A DNA stretch of 64,000 bases, from assembly GCA_016193485.1 (NCBI GenBank), contig JACPRZ010000063.1, positions 128,156 to 192,155 on the forward strand, given 5' to 3'. Of the stretch, positions 4,495-50,684 are shown piece after piece. Position numbers and translations under genes: made by a program. The number at the start of each line of letters is the position of its first letter. Position 1 is the first letter of the stretch. The notes below the pieces were generated by a model that was not told the DNA's origin, made no database searches, and worked only from the letters and a program-made list of their open reading frames with translations. The stretch comes from Bacteroidota bacterium (GTDB lineage: Bacteria; Bacteroidota; Bacteroidia; JACPRZ01).

Positions 4495-4606
4495 GGACAA
4501 AGATGCTGACGATTACTGTCAGCACCATGACCAAATGCGTTATGATGCAAGGACAAAGATACTGACGATTACCGTCAGCATTATGACCAAATGCGACATG
4601 ATATAC
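4495..4606. repeat. 2 x 56-bp tandem direct repeat, each unit carrying a CTGACGATTAC(T/C)GTCAG palindrome, with a third partial copy at 4607..4660
   Basis: aaggacaaagatgctgacgattactgtcagcaccatgaccaaatgcgttatgatgc is followed by aaggacaaagatactgacgattaccgtcagcattatgaccaaatgcgacatgatat. It lies directly upstream of the PBP1a start. Confidence 0.85.
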
Positions 4607-4702
4607 TGACGGAATTTGATTTTGCAAGTTTACAAAATCAAATTCGTCAGTATAAAAGTGAGATCGTAATAGAAAGAAAGGAATTTGTTCCGGGAACCCG
4701 GA

Positions 4703-5674
4703 TTATTGTTCCTTTTCAAGGGGAGCATCGCCCACGTAAACACCGTTTTTATAAACTGCAACAGATTGAATTATTCCGTTTTCATCATATTTATACCATT
4801 TACCGTCAATAAGTTTTCCGCTTTTAAAATAACCATCCTTTGAAATCTGCTTATTCTTATTGTATAGTTTATGGTACCCGTTACCGTCAAATATACCAAG
4901 ATTCGGTTGTTCATCTTTTTCCACTTTTACCATCTGGGATGGAGGAGGAGGAGGGGGTGGCGGTGGCGGTGGTTCCTTCCGTTCAAATTCTTTTGATTTG
5001 CCGGCATCCATGACTCCATCGGCAAAAGCACGTTCGGCCTTGAGTTCACCGGATTCATAATATTCTTTAATCACACCGCTCTCTTTACCGTTTGCCCATT
5101 CACCCTCAATCATCAATTGTCCGTTTTCATGAAAATATTTTTGCGCGCCTTCCCTTTTACCCAACTGGCTGAAGTTAAAATTCTGGTACAATTGTCCGTT
5201 TTCGTAGTAAAATTTGTATTCACCCGCCCATTTATTGATTTTCCAGAGACCCTCTTCTTTCAAATTTCCATTCTCGTAATACATTTTAGCAGGGCCATCC
5301 GGTCGGTTATTGGTATAGGTGATCTCACTTTCGGTTTTTCCGTTCGGATATAATTTTTTCCAAATCCCGGTTTTTTTGCCGTCTGTATAATTACCCTCTT
5401 CCACAATTTGTTCATCAGTGTAACCGGGAAGTTTTTTTATCTTGTTAAAAACAATCCAGTGTCCCTGTTTGAGATTTCCCGCATCAACAACATTGATGGT
5501 ATCCCCGTTATTAATTTCAAACGACTGGGCGGTGGAAAACAGTACCATTCCGGTCGTAAATCCGGCAATAAAAAGAAAATATGTTAACGCAGATAATTTC
5601 AACGTAAAGCGATTAAAATTATTCCCGGTAAAAAGGCGGCAAAGATATAATTTAATAATGATAATGCAGGTCAT
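4703..5674 (-). CDS. MORN-repeat (YwqK-like) protein with an N-terminal signal/anchor and a 12-proline linker
   Basis: Repeated G(x)WKxYYENGQL-type motifs, a PPPPPPPPPPPP tract encoded by GGN repeats on the plus strand, and a hydrophobic N-terminus. Confidence 0.65.
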   Translation of the reverse strand: MTCIIIIKLYLCRLFTGNNFNRFTLKLSALTYFLFIAGFTTGMVLFSTAQSFEINNGDTINVVDAGNLKQGHWIVFNKIKKLPGYTDEQIVEEGNYTDGKKTGIWKKLYPNGKTESEITYTNNRPDGPAKMYYENGNLKEEGLWKINKWAGEYKFYYENGQLYQNFNFSQLGKREGAQKYFHENGQLMIEGEWANGKESGVIKEYYESGELKAERAFADGVMDAGKSKEFERKEPPPPPPPPPPPSQMVKVEKDEQPNLGIFDGNGYHKLYNKNKQISKDGYFKSGKLIDGKWYKYDENGIIQSVAVYKNGVYVGDAPLEKEQ

Positions 5675-8123: not shown

Positions 8124-9275
8124 ATGGAAACAAAAACAATGAACATTAAACAACCTGAACCTGTGTCTGCCGGGCAGGCAGGCGAAACGGATTTTCTGCC
8201 GCTTACAGGCACCGACCACATTGAACTGTATGTCGGCAATGCTAAACAGGCCGCATTTTATTATCAGAATTGCTTTGGGTTTCAACCGGTAGCGTATGCC
8301 GGTCTGGAAACCGGGCTGAAGGACCGCGCTTCGTATGTATTGCAACAGGGTAAAATTCGCATGGTGCTTACCACATCGTTCGACCCGGGCAGTGAAATTT
8401 CCCGCCATGTTCAGAAACATGGCGATGGAGTAAAAGTCCTTGCCCTTGAAGTGGACGATGCAGTAAAAGCATTCACCGAAACGGTTACCCGGGGAGCGGT
8501 ACCGGTAAAGGAACCCGTCACACTGAAAGATGAATACGGCACGGTAAAAACGGCTGTGATAAAAACGTATGGAGAAACCATTCACAAATTTGTGGAACGA
8601 AAAAAATATACAGGCCCGTTCTTACCCGGGTACCAGAAAATTATTACACCGTCATCTGTTCATCCTGTCGGTTTTAAGGTAGTGGATCATTGTGTAGGCA
8701 ATGTTGAAAGAGGTGAAATGAACCGTTGGGTTGAATTTTACCGCAATGTCATGGGATTTCAACTGCTGGTGACCTTTGACGATACGGATATTTCCACTGA
8801 GTATTCAGCCCTGATGAGCAAGGTGGTTTCAAACGGGAACGGCTATGTTAAATTTCCCATCAACGAACCCGCAAAAGGGAGAAAAAAATCGCAGATTGAA
8901 GAGTACCTTGATTTTTACCGTGGTCCCGGGGTGCAACACATTGCATTGCTTACGGATGATATTATTTTCACCGTCTCGGAACTGCGCAAGAGGGGGGTGG
9001 AGTTTTTGTTTGTACCCGATTCCTACTATGATGACCTGTTCAGCCGCGTTGGAAAAATTGATGAAGATATTCGGATGATCAGGGAACTGAACATTCTGGT
9101 TGACAGGGATGACGAAGGGTACCTTCTGCAACTCTTCACCAAACCGGTTTCCGACAGGCCTACCCTGTTTTTTGAAATTATTCAGCGAAAAGGCGCCCGC
9201 TCTTTCGGGAAGGGAAATTTTAAGGCGCTCTTTGAGTCAATTGAAAGGGAGCAGGAAAGAAGAGGGACGCTGTAA
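8124..9275 (+). CDS. hppD: 4-hydroxyphenylpyruvate dioxygenase
   Basis: Two VOC/glyoxalase-like domains. HIELYVGNAKQAAFYYQNCFGF and the C-terminal GxGNFKALFESIEREQ are typical of HPPD. Confidence 0.85.
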   Translation: METKTMNIKQPEPVSAGQAGETDFLPLTGTDHIELYVGNAKQAAFYYQNCFGFQPVAYAGLETGLKDRASYVLQQGKIRMVLTTSFDPGSEISRHVQKHGDGVKVLALEVDDAVKAFTETVTRGAVPVKEPVTLKDEYGTVKTAVIKTYGETIHKFVERKKYTGPFLPGYQKIITPSSVHPVGFKVVDHCVGNVERGEMNRWVEFYRNVMGFQLLVTFDDTDISTEYSALMSKVVSNGNGYVKFPINEPAKGRKKSQIEEYLDFYRGPGVQHIALLTDDIIFTVSELRKRGVEFLFVPDSYYDDLFSRVGKIDEDIRMIRELNILVDRDDEGYLLQLFTKPVSDRPTLFFEIIQRKGARSFGKGNFKALFESIEREQERRGTL

Positions 9276-9279
9276 TCCG

Positions 9280-10350
9280 TTAATTGACCTTCGCGGAATA
9301 AACTATCGCGTCCACCTGCCGCAGGTACTCCCGCTTATCATATTTTGGAGCGAAAACGAAACCTTCAATGCAGATAAGACGCTTCTTTTGCCGGTCCGAA
9401 AGAAATAGGGCAACAAACGGTCCCCCCATAAAATCGTTCTGAACCTGCCATAAGCCGCGTATTTCAAGTGCCGGAAAACGACCGTGATGTATTTCTGTTT
9501 TTACCAGTGGGAAATCCGACATCGTCATCATATAAGAACCGGCAGATGGACCCGGTACATTTATTTTACAAACCGAATCGCGTATGGATCGCAGGCGGTT
9601 ATCGCCAGTGAAAACAGAATCGGTATAGGGAACGGAATAAATTAAAATTCCCTGGATGGTTTCTTCCGTTTCCCGCTGCAGCCAGGTAAAATTATTTGTG
9701 TTACGCATTGATTTATATCCTTTCGGAACCGTAAGCGAAATTCCCTGCGTTGATGAGATTTCCTGCATTACGGTTTTATCTGCAAGTTTTGAATAATTGG
9801 CGATCATCCTGCTTCTTTCGGATTTGCGGAAGAAATCAGTGATCAGGGAACAATTGTTTTTAAGAAAGCGGTCCATATCCTGATTTCTGCTAAGCGTAAG
9901 TTCCATTGAGACCTGTTCTTTCGACCAGGCGCCATGCCGGCTTATAAATGAATCCTTGCCGGACGTATCGCTGGAACGGATAATAAAAACATTCCTGTGG
10001 GTCTTAAATATACCTTTAAAAGCAGGGGGGGGAATTTGCACCAGCGTAAACATTGGCTCCGGCTGCGGCAAGGCAGGATGTTCTGCAGCAAGACATAAAC
10101 GCAGAGCATTGCCCGGTTTTCCAGTCCAGCCGTTTTCCGGCATCACAATAATAATTTCACCCGTTTTACCTGTGCTGCCGGGTAAAGCAATCCTGTTGCC
10201 GGAATCATTGCAGGAGGCGAACAGCGTCAGGAGTAAAATGCACAGCGATATGAGAATTTTATTAAATCCTCTCTCCCCCTCCCCCCGATAGATATCGGGG
10301 CTATCGGGATCAAAGGGGGAACAAAACCGGTTTTCATCTTTTTGCTTCAT
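9280..10350 (-). CDS. DUF4837-like lipoprotein. Its N-terminal region contains a translated copy of the CCCCGATAGATATCGGGG palindrome.
   Basis: Lipoprotein-type signal (...ILISLCILLLTLFASC). The ATG at 10350 overlaps the ispG stop in an ATGA arrangement. Residues DPDSPDIYRGEGE are encoded by the palindromic element at 10283..10311. Confidence 0.5.
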   Translation of the reverse strand: MKQKDENRFCSPFDPDSPDIYRGEGERGFNKILISLCILLLTLFASCNDSGNRIALPGSTGKTGEIIIVMPENGWTGKPGNALRLCLAAEHPALPQPEPMFTLVQIPPPAFKGIFKTHRNVFIIRSSDTSGKDSFISRHGAWSKEQVSMELTLSRNQDMDRFLKNNCSLITDFFRKSERSRMIANYSKLADKTVMQEISSTQGISLTVPKGYKSMRNTNNFTWLQRETEETIQGILIYSVPYTDSVFTGDNRLRSIRDSVCKINVPGPSAGSYMMTMSDFPLVKTEIHHGRFPALEIRGLWQVQNDFMGGPFVALFLSDRQKKRLICIEGFVFAPKYDKREYLRQVDAIVYSAKVN

Positions 10351-45113: not shown

Positions 45114-48100
45114 ATGTTAGAATTAGCATTTAAAAATAAATACCTGATTATAGTCGCTGCATTGCTTGTAGCGGTAATCAGCATCGTATCAATTCAAAAA
45201 TTGCCCGTAGATATTCTGCCGAACTACAAAACATCTGCCGTTCAGGTGCTAACGCTTTATCCCGGAATGCCTGCCGAAGTGATGGAAAAAGACATCACAT
45301 CACGAATTGAAAGATGGACAGGACAATCCAACGGAATTGAACATCAGGAAAGCAAAAGTTTAATTGGTGTCAGCATCGTGAAAGATTTTTTCAGAGAAGA
45401 AATTGACCCCAACACCTCACTTTCGCAAGTGACATCTTTGGCAATGTCCGATTTATATTATTTGCCCCCAGGGACAGTTCCGCCAATGGTAATGCCTTTT
45501 GACCCGACAGCCACTACACCGCTTGCGTTACTTGCAGTTAGTAGCGATTCACTCTCGGAAAAAGAATTGTATGACATTGCTTATTTCCAGTTAAGAAATC
45601 TTTTGGGTTCGGTTCAGGGAATAATTGCACCCGCAGTTTACGGAGGAAAGTTGCGGAGAATTTATATGTATGTCTATCCTGACAAATTACAGGCATACAA
45701 TCTTTCGCAAATCGATGTGATGGAAGCGGTGCAAAAAAATAATGTGATGATACCGACAGGCGATGTGAACATCGGAAATATGAATTACAGCGTGAACGCA
45801 AACGGAATGTTGCCTAAAGTGGAGGATTTCAACAACATTGTAATTAAAATGGGAAGAGACGCCCGCCTGCCGGACGGGCAGGGCTCACCGATTTTTCTCA
45901 AAGACATCGGTTATGCGAAAGACGCAAGCGCCATTCAGACAAATATGGTTCACATCAACGGCAAGCGGCAAGTTTATATTCCGATTTACAAACGCACAGG
46001 AGCAAACACAATCGCATCAGTGGAAGCAGTAAAAAATAAATTAGCGGAACTGAAAGAACGCTTGCCAAAAGCAATAAACCTTGATGTGATTTTAGACCAA
46101 TCAACTTATGTAAGAAATTCTATCAACGGACTTTTGAAAGAAGGAACCCTCGGTTTAATTTTAGTTTCACTTGCTTTGTTTTTGTTTCTCGGAAATTTTC
46201 GTTCCACATTCATAGTTGCTTTAAGTATTCCGCTTTCGGTGATGTTCGCTTTCATAGGATTATTTTTTACAGGCGATACAATCAACAGTATGACATTGGG
46301 AGGAATTGCATTAGCCATCGGTTTGCTCGTGGATGATTCAATAGTTGTTCTTGAAAATATTGACAAGCATTTGAAACAGGGAAAAACTTCTGCACAGGCA
46401 GCATTTGACGGAGCAAAAGAAGTAGCAATGCCAGTTCTCGTTACAACAATTACAATTTGCATTGTATTTTTTCCGATTATTTTTCTCACGGGAATTTCAA
46501 AATATCTTTTCACACCATTAGCGATTGTAGTTTCATTTGCAATGATTGGCTCACGGATTTTTTCTATGACGCTTGTGCCGATTGCAGCAGCAGCATTTTT
46601 CAAAGGACATTCAAACGAGAATAAACCCGAAAGCCTGCCTGCCGGCAGGCAGGGATTTTTAGGAATGTTTGACAGAGGAGTAACGAATCTCACTAATCGT
46701 TATGCGCTAATGATGGATAAAGTAATAAAGTTTCGTTGGGTAATTTTAATTTCAGTTGCTCTTTTGTTTATCATTTCAATTTTCGGTTTCAGAAAAATCG
46801 GAACAGAACTTTTCCCGAAAATGGATGTCGGGCAAATTTCCATTGATGTAAGAATGGAAAGCGGAACACGGATTGAAAAATCTGAAAAGACAATTACCGA
46901 AATTGAAAAGTTTTTGCAAAAAGAAATCGGAAATGATTTAAACATTATTATTTCCAATATGGGAGTGCTGAACGACTGGCCTGCCGCCTACACTTCCAAT
47001 TCAGGAACGCAGGACGCAACGATTGCAGTTCAGTTGAAAGAAGGGTATAAAATAAAAACTGCCGACTATGTAAAAAAACTTCGTCCGAAACTGAAAGAAC
47101 AATTCCCCGGAGTGCAATTCATTTTTAATACGGGCGGAATTGTAACCACCGCTTTGAATTTCGGTTTACCATCCCCTATTGACATTCAGATTACAGGAAA
47201 TGATTTGCATAAGTCGCACGAAATAGCCGTAAAGGTTCGGGACATTGTGCAGAATATAAAAGGCACGGAAGATGTTCGCATACATCAGCGTTACGACCAT
47301 CCCGAAATAAAAGTTGACATTGACAGAACGAAAGCGGCACAGTTGGGAATAAATGCGGATGATGTTGTGAAGAATACTGTTTCCGCTCTCAATTCGTCAG
47401 TGAATTTCAAACCTTCATTTTGGATTGATGAAAAAAACGGAAATCACTATTTCGTTGGCGTAACTTATCCCGAAATAGAATTGGACAACCCGCAATCGGT
47501 AGAAAATATTTCTCTCACAGGGACAAACGGCAAAACAACTTTTCTGAAAAACATTGCCAAAACTTCTCTCTCATCCGCACCGATAGAAATAAATCATTTA
47601 AACATTCAGCGGGTAACAGATGTATTTGCCAATGTGGAAGAAAGGGACATCGGTTCAGTAGCAAAAGAAATTGAAAATAAATTAGAAACATTAAAAAAAG
47701 ATTTGCCCGAAGGTTACAAAATAGAAATGCGGGGAGAAATTAAAAGTATGAAAGACAGTTTCGGAAATCTCGGCTTAGGATTAATCCTTGCCGTGCTGAT
47801 GGTATATCTTGTCATTGTTCCGCTTCTTCGCTCATTCAAATTACCGCTCATAATTATTACAGTCATTCCGCTTGGCTTAATCGGAGTTACAGGAATGTTG
47901 CTTGCCACCAATACTTATCTCAACATTCAATCCATGATGGGAATAATAATGATGGTGGGAATCACGGTTGCTTACAGCAATTTGCTGGTAGACAAAATGA
48001 ATAATCTTTTGAAAGCAGGAAAAAATTTAGAGGACGCAATCAAGGAAGGAGTAGCAAATCGTTTCCGTCCTATTATTATGACTGCTATCGTAGCGGTGCT

Positions 48101-49346
48101 TGCATTAACTCCTATGGCAATCGGTTACGAAATCGGTGGCGAAGCAAATGTTCCGCTTGCAAGAGCAATCATTGGCGGAGTGCTGATGGCGACATTGCTT
48201 TCACTTTTTGTAGTTCCAATTTTATTTTATCTGTTAAACAAAAAATCTCAAAACAAAATGAAACTCAATCAAACATTAATCCCGATAGCTATCGGGATTC
48301 CGCTCGTGATGCTGCTTGCTTCCTGCGGAAATAAAAGAGAAGAACAACAAACTAAAACTGCAAGCAGAAATGTTCCGACAGTTTTGGTTGGCAATCCGCA
48401 AACACATCAATTCAATTCTTCCTTGCAAATCAGCGGGACAGCAAAACCAAATCAGCAGGTAAAATTATTTGCAATGACAAGCGGAATGTTACGGGAAATA
48501 AATGTTGACATCGGAGATTTTGTAAAACAGGGAGAAACACTTGCCACGCTTGATAATCCCGAACTCATACAGCAGAAAGCAAAAGCCGAAGCCGATTTGA
48601 ACGGAAAGAAATCTATCTACGACAGATTAAAAAGCGTGTATGACAAAACTCCGCAACTCACCACTATTGCAGAAGTGGAAAAAGCACAGGCAGAATTTGA
48701 AAGTGCGAAAGCAATATTGAGCGGTTTGCAATCGCAAATAAATTTCCTGCAAATACAATCACCGTTTTCAGGAGTAATTGTCAATCGTTTTTTTGACAAA
48801 GGAGCAACCATTCAGAGCGGGTTAAATAATTCCAACGCAATGCCTCTTTTTGAAATTCAGGATTTACAACCGATAAGATTGACTATTGATATTCCCGAAA
48901 CAGACGCAGTTCTCATTGACAAAAATACAAAAACAGAAATTACATTTCCTGAATTGCCCAATGGAAAATACACGGCAGCAGTTTCACGCATTGCTTATGG
49001 ATTGGATGAAAACACAAAAACAATGAAGGTGGAAATTGATTTACCGAATACAGATTTAAAAATTCGTTCAGGAATGTATGCGAAAGTTGAAATAAAACGG
49101 AGCGGACATAAAGATGTCTTGTCCGTTCCGAATGAAGCAATCGGAAATGTGAAAGGGCAATCGTTTATCTATGTAGTGAATGATGGAAAAGTGAAAAAAA
49201 TAGAAGTAAAAGCAGGAATACGAGATGATAAATTTTCCGAATTGCTGAATGTAGAAATAAAATCCACCGACAAAATTGTAGTGCAGGGTAAAGAATTTTG
49301 TAGTGATGGAGCAACCGTTCAAACAAAAGAATTAATCACTAAATAA
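45114..49346 (+). CDS. RND efflux permease (AcrB/CzcA superfamily, ~1045 aa) fused in-frame to a periplasmic adaptor subunit (MFP/HlyD-like, ~360 aa)
   Basis: N-terminal KLPVDILPNYK...YPGMPAEVME and 12-TM RND architecture. Three codons after the RND C-terminus (...YLLNKKSQNK), the frame continues through MKLNQTLIPIAIGIPLVMLLASCGNK (a lipoprotein signal) into a lipoyl/beta-barrel adaptor, with no stop codon. Confidence 0.75.
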   Translation: MLELAFKNKYLIIVAALLVAVISIVSIQKLPVDILPNYKTSAVQVLTLYPGMPAEVMEKDITSRIERWTGQSNGIEHQESKSLIGVSIVKDFFREEIDPNTSLSQVTSLAMSDLYYLPPGTVPPMVMPFDPTATTPLALLAVSSDSLSEKELYDIAYFQLRNLLGSVQGIIAPAVYGGKLRRIYMYVYPDKLQAYNLSQIDVMEAVQKNNVMIPTGDVNIGNMNYSVNANGMLPKVEDFNNIVIKMGRDARLPDGQGSPIFLKDIGYAKDASAIQTNMVHINGKRQVYIPIYKRTGANTIASVEAVKNKLAELKERLPKAINLDVILDQSTYVRNSINGLLKEGTLGLILVSLALFLFLGNFRSTFIVALSIPLSVMFAFIGLFFTGDTINSMTLGGIALAIGLLVDDSIVVLENIDKHLKQGKTSAQAAFDGAKEVAMPVLVTTITICIVFFPIIFLTGISKYLFTPLAIVVSFAMIGSRIFSMTLVPIAAAAFFKGHSNENKPESLPAGRQGFLGMFDRGVTNLTNRYALMMDKVIKFRWVILISVALLFIISIFGFRKIGTELFPKMDVGQISIDVRMESGTRIEKSEKTITEIEKFLQKEIGNDLNIIISNMGVLNDWPAAYTSNSGTQDATIAVQLKEGYKIKTADYVKKLRPKLKEQFPGVQFIFNTGGIVTTALNFGLPSPIDIQITGNDLHKSHEIAVKVRDIVQNIKGTEDVRIHQRYDHPEIKVDIDRTKAAQLGINADDVVKNTVSALNSSVNFKPSFWIDEKNGNHYFVGVTYPEIELDNPQSVENISLTGTNGKTTFLKNIAKTSLSSAPIEINHLNIQRVTDVFANVEERDIGSVAKEIENKLETLKKDLPEGYKIEMRGEIKSMKDSFGNLGLGLILAVLMVYLVIVPLLRSFKLPLIIITVIPLGLIGVTGMLLATNTYLNIQSMMGIIMMVGITVAYSNLLVDKMNNLLKAGKNLEDAIKEGVANRFRPIIMTAIVAVLALTPMAIGYEIGGEANVPLARAIIGGVLMATLLSLFVVPILFYLLNKKSQNKMKLNQTLIPIAIGIPLVMLLASCGNKREEQQTKTASRNVPTVLVGNPQTHQFNSSLQISGTAKPNQQVKLFAMTSGMLREINVDIGDFVKQGETLATLDNPELIQQKAKAEADLNGKKSIYDRLKSVYDKTPQLTTIAEVEKAQAEFESAKAILSGLQSQINFLQIQSPFSGVIVNRFFDKGATIQSGLNNSNAMPLFEIQDLQPIRLTIDIPETDAVLIDKNTKTEITFPELPNGKYTAAVSRIAYGLDENTKTMKVEIDLPNTDLKIRSGMYAKVEIKRSGHKDVLSVPNEAIGNVKGQSFIYVVNDGKVKKIEVKAGIRDDKFSELLNVEIKSTDKIVVQGKEFCSDGATVQTKELITK
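48281..48296. repeat. Perfect 16-bp palindrome CCCGATAGCTATCGGG inside the adaptor signal-peptide coding region
   Basis: It encodes IPIAIGI. It belongs to the same motif family as 10283, 12872, 12918 and 54143. Confidence 0.8.
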
Positions 49347-49358
49347 AAGGAACAGAAA

Positions 49359-50684
49359 ATGAAAAATAATTTCAGAAAAATTGTTGCCTCAATTTTATTG
49401 GTGAGTGCAATGTTCACCGCAAATGCACAATCCCCCTCCCCTTCGGGGAGGGATGGGGTGGGGCTTGTAAATCTTGAAACGGTTTTAAAATTAGCAGGAG
49501 CGAATAATTTAACCATTCAGGAATACCAGTTGAAATACCAACATGCATTAGCCGAACAAAGCAAAGCCAAAGAATGGTATCTGCCGAATATTTATTTCGG
49601 TGCAAGCACGCATTATCTGAATGGCGCAGCAATGAATACCGATGGGCAAATATTTACTGATGTGAACAGAAACAATCTCTGGACAGGGTTGGGTATCGGA
49701 GCGGAAATAGATTTTAGTAAAGGATTTTATTCTTCGCTTGCTGCAAAACAAAAAGCCAAAGCAATGCAATATCAAAGCACGACAGAAAAAAATAAAATGA
49801 TTTTACAAACGGTGCAGACCTATTTTGATTTGCAGGTAGAACAATTAAAATATTTTTTCTTGCAGCAATTAGTTAATCAATCCAACACGATTTCACAGCA
49901 AATAAAAATAAAAGTGGACGCAGGATTGCTATATCAATCCGATTATCTGCTCTCGCAAAGCAATTATAATCATTTGAAAATTTCAATGCTCCAAACAAAA
50001 ATAGAATGGCAGAAGAAATCCGCTGAACTTGTCAATCTTCTGAATTTAGAAAACAATATTAGTTTGGTAAGTGGCGACACTACTTTAATTCCGCTAAAAC
50101 TCATTGAGCAAAAAAATGACACGGCAACTTATAAAAACGGTTTTGAAAAACGAGCGGAATATTTAGGATTAAGTTCCGAACTCCAATCTTTTCAAACACT
50201 TCGCAAGACAGCCAATCAGGGTTTGTTATTGCCAAAGTTGAGAGCGGGTTTTGACAATGGAGCGTTCGGTGCATACACCACACCGCTTTACAACACCTAT
50301 CAATTCAACGCTTCGCTTGTTTGGAATTTGCCATTGGGAAGATTTACTTATAAAGGCGATTTGAAAAAATACGACACGCAAATTCTCATTCAGCAAAACG
50401 AAATAGAACAATTTAAAAATCAATTCCAGCAGGAAATTTCTATTGCCAATTCTCAACTTCAAATTGCCCAAGAACAAATGACTATTGCGAAACATGCTTT
50501 GCAATCATCCACCGAAGCATTGAACCAAAGCATAGAAAGGCAAAAGTTAGGAACGGCAAAACCTTTTGAAGTTTTTCAGATACAACAGTTTTTCTTGCAG
50601 GCACAAACCGATTATGTGAAAACGGTGATTGATTATAACAAGGTGCAATATGCTTTATGGGTTGCACTGGGAAATATGTTATAA
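49359..50684 (+). CDS. TolC-family outer-membrane efflux protein
   Basis: 441 aa with a signal peptide and two tandem OEP repeats. Residues SPSPSGRDGVG just after the signal are encoded by the GC-rich hairpin at 49431..49463. Confidence 0.75.
   Translation: MKNNFRKIVASILLVSAMFTANAQSPSPSGRDGVGLVNLETVLKLAGANNLTIQEYQLKYQHALAEQSKAKEWYLPNIYFGASTHYLNGAAMNTDGQIFTDVNRNNLWTGLGIGAEIDFSKGFYSSLAAKQKAKAMQYQSTTEKNKMILQTVQTYFDLQVEQLKYFFLQQLVNQSNTISQQIKIKVDAGLLYQSDYLLSQSNYNHLKISMLQTKIEWQKKSAELVNLLNLENNISLVSGDTTLIPLKLIEQKNDTATYKNGFEKRAEYLGLSSELQSFQTLRKTANQGLLLPKLRAGFDNGAFGAYTTPLYNTYQFNASLVWNLPLGRFTYKGDLKKYDTQILIQQNEIEQFKNQFQQEISIANSQLQIAQEQMTIAKHALQSSTEALNQSIERQKLGTAKPFEVFQIQQFFLQAQTDYVKTVIDYNKVQYALWVALGNML

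Follow-up and report, generated by a model that had tools for sequence, protein, structure and literature searches.

Permease–Adaptor Fusion in the Window

The subject of this analysis is a gene module for a tripartite RND efflux pump, located in a 64,000-nt stretch of contig JACPRZ010000063.1 of a Bacteroidota bacterium; this whole stretch is referred to below as the window. In the ORF listing of the window, the region 45114..49346 of the forward strand is a single open reading frame (ORF) of 1410 aa with an ATG start. It begins as a permease with 12 transmembrane (TM) segments and continues in the same frame as a periplasmic adaptor (Table 1). The nucleotides 48237..48260 together with the next codon read AAC AAA AAA TCT CAA AAC AAA ATG AAA, and a stop codon is absent. 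Given one ORF, no stop at the junction, and profiles of both partners matched near full length, the in-frame permease–adaptor fusion reported in the preliminary description of this DNA is confirmed. The gene order permease–adaptor–outer-membrane protein (OMP), which had been noted there as unusual, is also confirmed, with a TolC-like gene lying after the fused ORF. A correction is needed as to the exact position of the joint. The adaptor ATG had been placed three codons after the permease C-terminus, but it abuts this C-terminus directly, since the permeases of the split relatives, in which the two proteins are encoded separately, end at the residue aligned with K1048, and their TGA overlaps the adaptor ATG.

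The adaptor part of the protein is a predicted lipoprotein with a basic n-region, a hydrophobic h-region, and a lipobox of the [LVI][ASTVI][GAS]C type (MK...TLIPIAIGIPLVMLLAS-C). The lipobox cysteine is followed by a flexible stretch of approximately 20 residues, GNKREEQQTKTASRNVPTV. The window protein is identical to an NCBI entry from a Bacteroidetes metagenome-assembled genome (MAG), and an independent Logan assembly of run SRR12113421 contains the identical 1410-aa protein.

Table 1. Features of the pump module and their positions in the window.
Feature	Position	Strand	Comment
Conserved small ORF, 130 aa, GTG start, just 5' of the permease	44616..45008	+	N-terminal hydrophobic segment, Cys/His motifs
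18-nt palindrome TCCCGACAGTTATCGGGA	45022..45039	.	Intergenic, ~75 nt upstream of the permease ATG
RND permease module, residues 1–1048	45114..48257	+	12-TM AcrB-type; ACR_tran match
A-rich linker N-K-K-S-Q-N-K, cytoplasmic tail of the permease	48237..48257	+	Frame-flip site, homopolymer-length changes (split ATGA overlap vs. fused)
Internal in-frame ATG, Met1049	48258..48260	+	Start codon of the adaptor in split relatives
Lipoprotein signal peptide MKLNQTLIPIAIGIPLVMLLAS	48258..48323	+	Read from the translation
Second palindrome copy TCCCGATAGCTATCGGGA	48280..48297	.	Inside signal-peptide codons, encodes part of IPIAIGIP
Lipobox L-A-S-C, residues 1068–1071 (Cys codon 48324–48326)	48315..48326	+	Predicted Lgt lipidation/LspA cleavage site
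Mature periplasmic adaptor, Cys1071–Lys1410 plus stop codon	48324..49346	+	TIGR01730 match
Outer-membrane factor, TolC/OEP family	49359..50684	+	12 nt 3' of the fused ORF; PF02321

Family Assignment of the Pump Components

The permease belongs to the RND superfamily: it matches PF00873 ACR_tran with 702.9 bits (cut-off 28), residues 1–1041 corresponding to positions 1–1020 of the 1021 profile positions. The translation of TM4 contains LVDDSIVVLEN, an HAE-1-like DD motif. In AcrB, D407/D408 lie in the context LVDDAIVVVEN, and by this comparison the paired aspartates of the HAE-1 proton relay are present in TM4 of the window permease. The TM4 motif of CzcA-type permeases is DFG..DGA, and the window permease is of the DD type instead. 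The scores against the NCBIfam models RND_permease_1 and RND_permease_2 are 593 and 463 bits, respectively, with a cut-off of 1250, and the score against the HME-RND CusA/CzcA model TIGR00914 is 453 bits with a cut-off of 701. As the window permease stays below every curated NCBIfam subfamily cut-off, it lies outside the curated multidrug RND subfamilies. The nearest solved structures are those of MdtB, ZneA, and several HAE-1 pumps, with similar scores of ~250–300 bits, and the permease is approximately equidistant from MdtB, ZneA, CusA, MexB, and AcrB. Annotation pipelines name the fused proteins differently; JGI uses ‘CzcA family heavy metal efflux pump/RND family efflux transporter MFP subunit’, while NCBI uses ‘adaptor subunit’ or ‘permease subunit’. 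The JGI ‘CzcA family’ name is a generic label.

The adaptor part matches TIGR01730 RND_mfp with 185.8 bits (cut-off 94.9), residues 1094–1403 covering positions 5–320 of 322, and the Pfam domains HlyD_D23 and HlyD_3 are found on residues 1103–1323 (87.9 bits for HlyD_D23, cut-off 30). Its best match in the PDB is the TriA–TriB construct 6vej. The product of the third gene belongs to the OEP family, matching PF02321 in two stretches with 101.3 bits (cut-off 22), and is below the cut-off of the TolC subfamily TIGR01844 (59.6 vs. 225).

Distribution of the Fused Form

A homolog search revealed ~60 protein clusters, 1377–1441 aa in length, that span 100% of the query at 63–89% identity. Their sources are Bacteroidota and Ignavibacteria, and one of the proteins is a RefSeq ‘MULTISPECIES’ entry of cultured Mucilaginibacter, encoded on a 4.4-Mb contig. 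A scan of one genome per species (GTDB representatives) detected 48 loci; permease and adaptor are encoded by one ORF in 16 of them, among which is the locus of the cultured Hymenobacter roseosalivarius DSM 11622. The fused form thus accounts for 16 of the 32 classifiable species-representative loci, and the orthologs are not universally separate genes with a stop codon at the junction. If a fusion family is taken to mean orthologs with a single ORF that contains ACR_tran and an adaptor together with a basic linker, a hydrophobic segment, and a lipobox, then the junction design common to 61 fused proteins and the 16 fused species-representative loci makes them a conserved family. The fused form was not seen in 11 loci from Verrucomicrobiota, Campylobacterota, and Gammaproteobacteria. 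The clusters of fused proteins and those of stand-alone adaptors (60–91% identity) are similar in number, neither search being an unbiased sample. A search with the adaptor only returned many stand-alone adaptors and almost no long proteins, missing even the query’s own protein; the only matches containing ACR_tran were the fragments P0297 and P0124.

Several other features of the homologs can be noted. In fused homologs of ~1430–1441 aa (e.g., P0020, P0028, P0034, and P0040–P0049), the adaptor is ~40 residues longer on its C-terminal side than that of the window. The protein P0085, with 81% identity over the permease, is split. The same pump module is carried by the Sulfurimonas MAGs L023, L024, and L028 and by the Gammaproteobacteria MAG L026; the C-terminal part of their permeases is ~80% identical, and all these copies are split. 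The occurrence of the module in Campylobacterota and Gammaproteobacteria, at such a level of sequence identity, suggests a recent inter-phylum transfer.

Split Relatives and Origin of the Fusion

Very close relatives of the window module, with permease identity up to 94–96%, are split. In one of them (L002), the permease ends with ...TCA AAA TGA, and the adaptor ATG overlaps this stop codon in a 4-nt ATGA; compared with L002, the linker of the window has one extra base. The ATGA overlap was also found in L018 (Cyclobacteriaceae) and in six Verrucomicrobiota loci, where the permease is only ~60% identical. The Sulfurimonas loci have TAAnATG at the junction, and two further split loci have overlaps of 8 or 14 nt. 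A comparison of the fused locus L053 with the split locus L002, whose permeases are 95% identical, indicates how the two states are related: the linkers differ by A5/A6, CC/C, and AAA/AA, with a net change of +1. Split relatives mostly have the ATGA overlap, and small indels in the A-rich, homopolymer-rich linker convert the split state into the fused one and back. Since the adaptor is in another frame at the ATGA overlap of the split state, fusion corresponds to a net 1-nt change in linker length and not to a mutation of the stop codon.

The pattern on the phylogenetic tree is consistent with frequent conversion. In a neighbour-joining tree of the permease part of 113 proteins, with the fused and split states scored by Fitch parsimony, fused and split leaves are mixed throughout, and at least 23 state changes are required. 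The nearest fused/split pairs are ~95% identical. At the same time, there are fused-only clades whose members are down to 68–77% identical over the full length and in which the linker residues change while the frame is kept. The preliminary description had named a recent stop-codon loss as one possibility. This does not agree with the data in either respect: the mechanism is a net 1-nt change of the linker starting from an ATGA-overlapped split state, with no stop codon mutated, and the fusion is not simply recent, as fused clades are only 68–77% identical and there were many gains or reversions. It can be stated with high confidence that the fusion is real, recurrent, and tolerated, and that it derives from the ATGA overlap.

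The junction is also a site where other genes are found. In L001, crcB, encoding a fluoride channel, is inserted exactly at the junction (9102–9476) and starts at the ATGA overlap; in the same locus, the adaptor gene is truncated at its 5' end, and the OMP gene is fragmented. L054 carries an Fe/Mn superoxide dismutase gene at the junction (4587–5312). In L022 and L027, a small CxxC ORF, starting at the ATGA overlap, directly follows the permease stop codon, and L017 and L019 have other insertions.

Conservation of the Start Site, Signal Peptide, and Lipobox

The fused ORF keeps all elements of the start and of the lipoprotein signal peptide that belong to the adaptor. A basic linker and a short hydrophobic segment are common to all 61 fused proteins. 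The lipobox cysteine is present in 61 of 61, and the +2 position is occupied by glycine in 50. The uncharged hydrophobic run before the cysteine has a median length of 14 aa (typically 12–19 aa, 62 fused proteins), which is usual in signal peptides that are cleaved; a permanently inserted TM helix would normally be longer. The distance from methionine to cysteine has the same median of 20 in fused (n = 59) and split (n = 15) forms.

Of the 61 fused proteins, only P0055, P0056, P0116, and P0122 lack the internal methionine; where present it is invariant, while every neighbouring position is variable. At the nucleotide level, AAA ATG A occurs in all 16 fused loci; A is found at −3 in 16/16, at −13 in 15/16, and at −6 in 11/16, and the 21 nt upstream of the internal ATG are 68% A. 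In the centroid RNA fold, the bases preceding the internal ATG are predicted to be unpaired. According to a published study (PMC6847099), Bacteroidetes do without Shine–Dalgarno sequences, and initiation is favoured by A at −3. The internal reinitiation site considered in the preliminary description is therefore plausible as far as the invariant ATG in its AAA ATG A context is concerned. It is not the whole story, because ribosomes that finish the permease must all read on into the adaptor.

Fusions beyond This Family

In a search of 1.84 billion cluster representatives, the fusion family of the window collapsed into one representative. The same search revealed distant permease–adaptor fusions at 28–46% identity (P0127, P0136, P0138, P0164, and P0231), each with a basic linker, a hydrophobic segment, and a lipobox cysteine; P0138 lacks the methionine. 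The five proteins are independent fusions of the same junction design. In addition, single-ORF fusions of a permease with an OMP (ACR_tran + OEP) were found in P0129, P0130, P0200, and P0269. They are 1470–1557 aa in length and have type-I-like signal peptides at the joint. As an outer-membrane factor tethered to an inner-membrane permease would be non-functional, permease–OMP fusions imply either cleavage or internal initiation.

Proposed Mechanism and Alternative Explanations

The C-terminus of RND permeases lies in the cytoplasm, behind TM12, and a signal peptide enters the membrane with its N-terminus inside and its C-terminus outside. Owing to the combination of these two orientations, the fusion should be topologically harmless. 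The signal peptide is the sole segment of the fused protein able to take the chain from the cytoplasmic C-terminus of the permease to the periplasm. It would act as a 13th membrane pass and deliver the adaptor to the periplasm, where Lgt would lipidate the lipobox cysteine and LspA would cut in front of it. Cleavage would free the same mature lipoprotein adaptor as in the split relatives and would leave the permease with a C-terminal extension of ~22 residues. The internal ATG, with its good context for initiation in Bacteroidota, would give additional free adaptor and so help to reach two adaptors per permease; in known pumps, the adaptor:permease ratio is 6:3 (PMC4446572). The widespread and repeated occurrence of the fusion in Bacteroidota suggests that one chain can give rise to two proteins in the cell.

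Taken as a package, the natural fusion, the signal peptide as a 13th pass, the release by Lgt and LspA, and the adaptor made from the internal ATG form the explanation that we consider probable, with moderate confidence. Within it, cleavage by LspA specifically is about as likely as not. More tentatively, the fused gene can be regarded as encoding a natural membrane polyprotein, in which an internal lipobox after 12 TM segments yields the permease and a lipidated adaptor at 1:1 and the internal start adds the second adaptor.

Several points weigh against this explanation. Cleavage by LspA at the internal lipobox is deduced from the sequence, and a literature search found no documented precedent for internal cleavage by LspA (signal peptidase II). 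Conservation of the methionine and the lipobox could stem from frequent split phases and not from a function in the fused state. Some of the changes counted on the tree reflect genes inserted at the junction (crcB and Fe superoxide dismutase) and not indels, and a few could be assembly errors in A-runs. The ratio of fused to split forms is known from biased samples only. Finally, the Met-less Hymenobacter junction has three in-frame GTG codons and belongs to a small clade; the GTG codons weaken this junction as proof against the need for an internal start.

The main rival is a permanent tether. According to this explanation, the protein stays uncleaved and keeps its signal peptide as a 13th TM helix. 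Every permease protomer would then bear one tethered adaptor, with the second site taken by adaptor made from the internal ATG. Thanks to the flexible stretch after the cysteine, a tethered adaptor could get to its docking site; clades with only fused members persist; and engineered fusions of AcrB with AcrA reportedly work as transporters. However, the junction shows no sign of having become a lasting TM helix: with a median of 14 aa, the hydrophobic segment is short and does not exceed that of the split genes, and the lipobox cysteine (61/61) and the +2 glycine (50/61) are kept, although a tethered adaptor needs no lipidation. Moreover, the permease–OMP fusions of the same design cannot work uncleaved. 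We consider a permanent tether unlikely, while recognizing it as the most serious competitor of the cleavage model.

Another possibility is a neutral or slightly deleterious drift of the frame, in which functional adaptor comes from the internal ATG only, the read-through adaptor part is irrelevant or degraded, and the fused state lasts until the next indel. The toggling is indeed very frequent (at least 23 changes), the ATG and its start context are invariant, and the insertion of unrelated genes at the junction in relatives, together with the toggling, shows that the constraint on the junction is weak. Against this, every permease molecule carries an adaptor in the fused state, which means that the product is at least fully tolerated; the fused form is approximately as common as the split one among close relatives and is present in 16 of the 32 classifiable species-representative loci, which is not expected under purifying selection; and Met-less fused forms exist. 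Drift alone is therefore improbable as an explanation.

A sequencing or assembly error, also mentioned in the preliminary description, would lie in an A-rich stretch and would mean that the true genome has the ATGA overlap. The window does come from a MAG, and its junction contains runs of A4–A6, but the independent Logan assembly gives the identical protein, and in-frame junctions with differing linkers occur in dozens of independent samples and in cultured isolates. As many studies have contributed to the ~60 clusters and 16 species-representative genomes that carry the same fusion, an error is effectively excluded. A programmed +1 ribosomal frameshift in the linker, with termination at the TGA of ATGA recreating the split products, has an equally negligible probability: the +1 frame does meet TGA exactly at ATGA, which is kept in 16/16 fused loci, but known +1 shift sites and stimulators are absent, the Lys/Asn codon in second place of the signal peptide explains the A that follows ATG, and the linker sequences vary freely. 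Both programmed frameshifting and transcriptional slippage were rejected as candidates, the A-runs being only 4–7 nt long and a shift motif being absent.

Neighbouring Genes and Elements

In almost every related locus, the adaptor is followed by an OMP homolog, and the order permease–adaptor–OMP is kept from Bacteroidota to Verrucomicrobiota, whereas in relatives with ~30% identity (Myxococcota) the adaptor comes first, as is canonical. The small ORF upstream of the permease has tblastn matches just 5' of the permease in 13 other loci at 29–55% identity. Its homologs are 120–140 aa in length and are called as genes in L001 (5517–5909) and L053 (1008–1400). The alignment revealed the invariant motifs KTHYC, R[FY]HGDC, Y.C.D, CR[GS][GA]PP, and LRGPP. 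No Pfam or NCBIfam match to this ORF was found, even at E = 10. It is probably the first gene of the pump module and may encode an accessory protein with a metal- or redox-related role in this pump family. The gene order of the family is small ORF–permease–adaptor–OMP, and this is a distinct RND family.

The two palindromes of Table 1 are near-identical copies of TCCCGA-N6-TCGGGA, with two matches in the window vs. 0.04 expected. The copy in the signal peptide adds ~4 residues, and it is absent from P0002, the closest homolog (comparison of P0001 with P0002). Other loci do not conserve the palindromes at these sites; the two copies may represent an operator pair or else a small insertion of palindromic sequence. 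A promoter and terminator scan gave nothing above the shuffled expectation, the scan model being one that does not represent Bacteroidota promoters.

Upstream of the module, on the forward strand, the two halves of PRK12778, a single bifunctional protein in the NCBIfam model (DHOD-B-type electron-transfer subunit; NADPH-dependent glutamate synthase), are encoded as separate genes at 41628–42458 and 43097–44551; the second of them covers profile positions 284–751 of 752. A DUF559 endonuclease-like gene (42593–43024, +) is located between them.

Comparison with Known Systems and Significance

Like the canonical RND pumps AcrAB-TolC, MexAB-OprM, MdtABC, and ZneCAB, the module of the window consists of a 12-TM permease, a lipoprotein adaptor, and a factor of the OEP family. 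Its adaptor also has the same lipoyl, beta-barrel, and membrane-proximal domains as the adaptors of the canonical pumps. The canonical pumps have the adaptor–permease order, whereas in the window the order is permease–adaptor–OMP, with the first two in one ORF, and the module of the window, unlike these pumps, includes the conserved small Cys/His-rich ORF upstream.

The closest analogs of the fusion are laboratory constructs. Engineered AcrB–AcrA fusions are reported to act as efflux transporters (Hayashi et al. 2016, J Bacteriol 198:332, cited in PMC8300642). They reportedly carry the adaptor on the C-terminus of the RND permease, as in the window, and have designed linkers. The fusion of the window differs in that it is natural and recurrent and is joined via an intact lipoprotein signal peptide, and it is probably processed. 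Natural subunit linkages bearing on the 3:6:3 stoichiometry are TriAB of TriABC and the fused dimeric adaptor DSY0927 of Desulfitobacterium hafniense (PMC4446572). Unlike the fusion in the window, these link adaptor to adaptor inside the periplasm, with no membrane crossing and no internal signal peptide.

A similar arrangement of the chain is known from another system. FbcH of Bradyrhizobium japonicum, the cytochrome b–c1 precursor, combines a polytopic protein, a signal peptide, and a periplasmic protein in one chain, which is cleaved into two proteins. As in the window, the membrane part has a cytoplasmic C-terminus, after which the internal signal peptide and the periplasmic protein follow. 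The cleavage of FbcH is attributed to type I signal peptidase, whereas the site in the window is a lipobox (type II). We know of no precedent for internal type II cleavage. In ABC importers of the OpuABC/GlnPQ type, the substrate-binding protein, which is a separate lipoprotein in other species, is fused to the permease via an extra hydrophobic segment. This segment is a stable signal-anchor, and the parts stay fused; the family and the direction of transport also differ from those of the pump in the window. Members of the RND superfamily can be encoded by separate genes or by a single polypeptide depending on the lineage, as is the case for SecDF, a fusion in Thermus thermophilus (PMC8277102). 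SecDF joins two halves of the same membrane domain, whereas in the window a permease is joined with a periplasmic adaptor.

In the literature searched, which included two major reviews, one of them searchable in part, no natural permease–adaptor fusions, no origin from an ATGA overlap, and no internal lipobox are described. As far as the searchable text of these reviews goes, the linked subunits that appear in them are limited to fused adaptor dimers, covalent AcrB trimers, and engineered constructs.

The findings have consequences for annotation. Proteins of 1400 aa that contain both components are named either ‘adaptor’ or ‘permease’, and gene pairs with an ATGA overlap can become fusions by single-base indels without being pseudogenes.

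The stoichiometry of adaptor and permease and the assembly of the pump have so far been probed with artificial AcrB–AcrA and AcrA–AcrA fusions. The dozens of matched fused and split orthologs in culturable Bacteroidota, some of them ~95% identical, are a natural test system in which the function of a tethered adaptor, the processing of an internal lipobox, and the control of subunit ratios without coupling based on Shine–Dalgarno sequences can be tested. If the polyprotein interpretation is true, it would represent an undescribed route of lipoprotein biogenesis and, together with the permease–OMP fusions, would point to a general way of hard-wiring the supply of tripartite-pump subunits in bacteria whose ribosomes ignore Shine–Dalgarno sequences.

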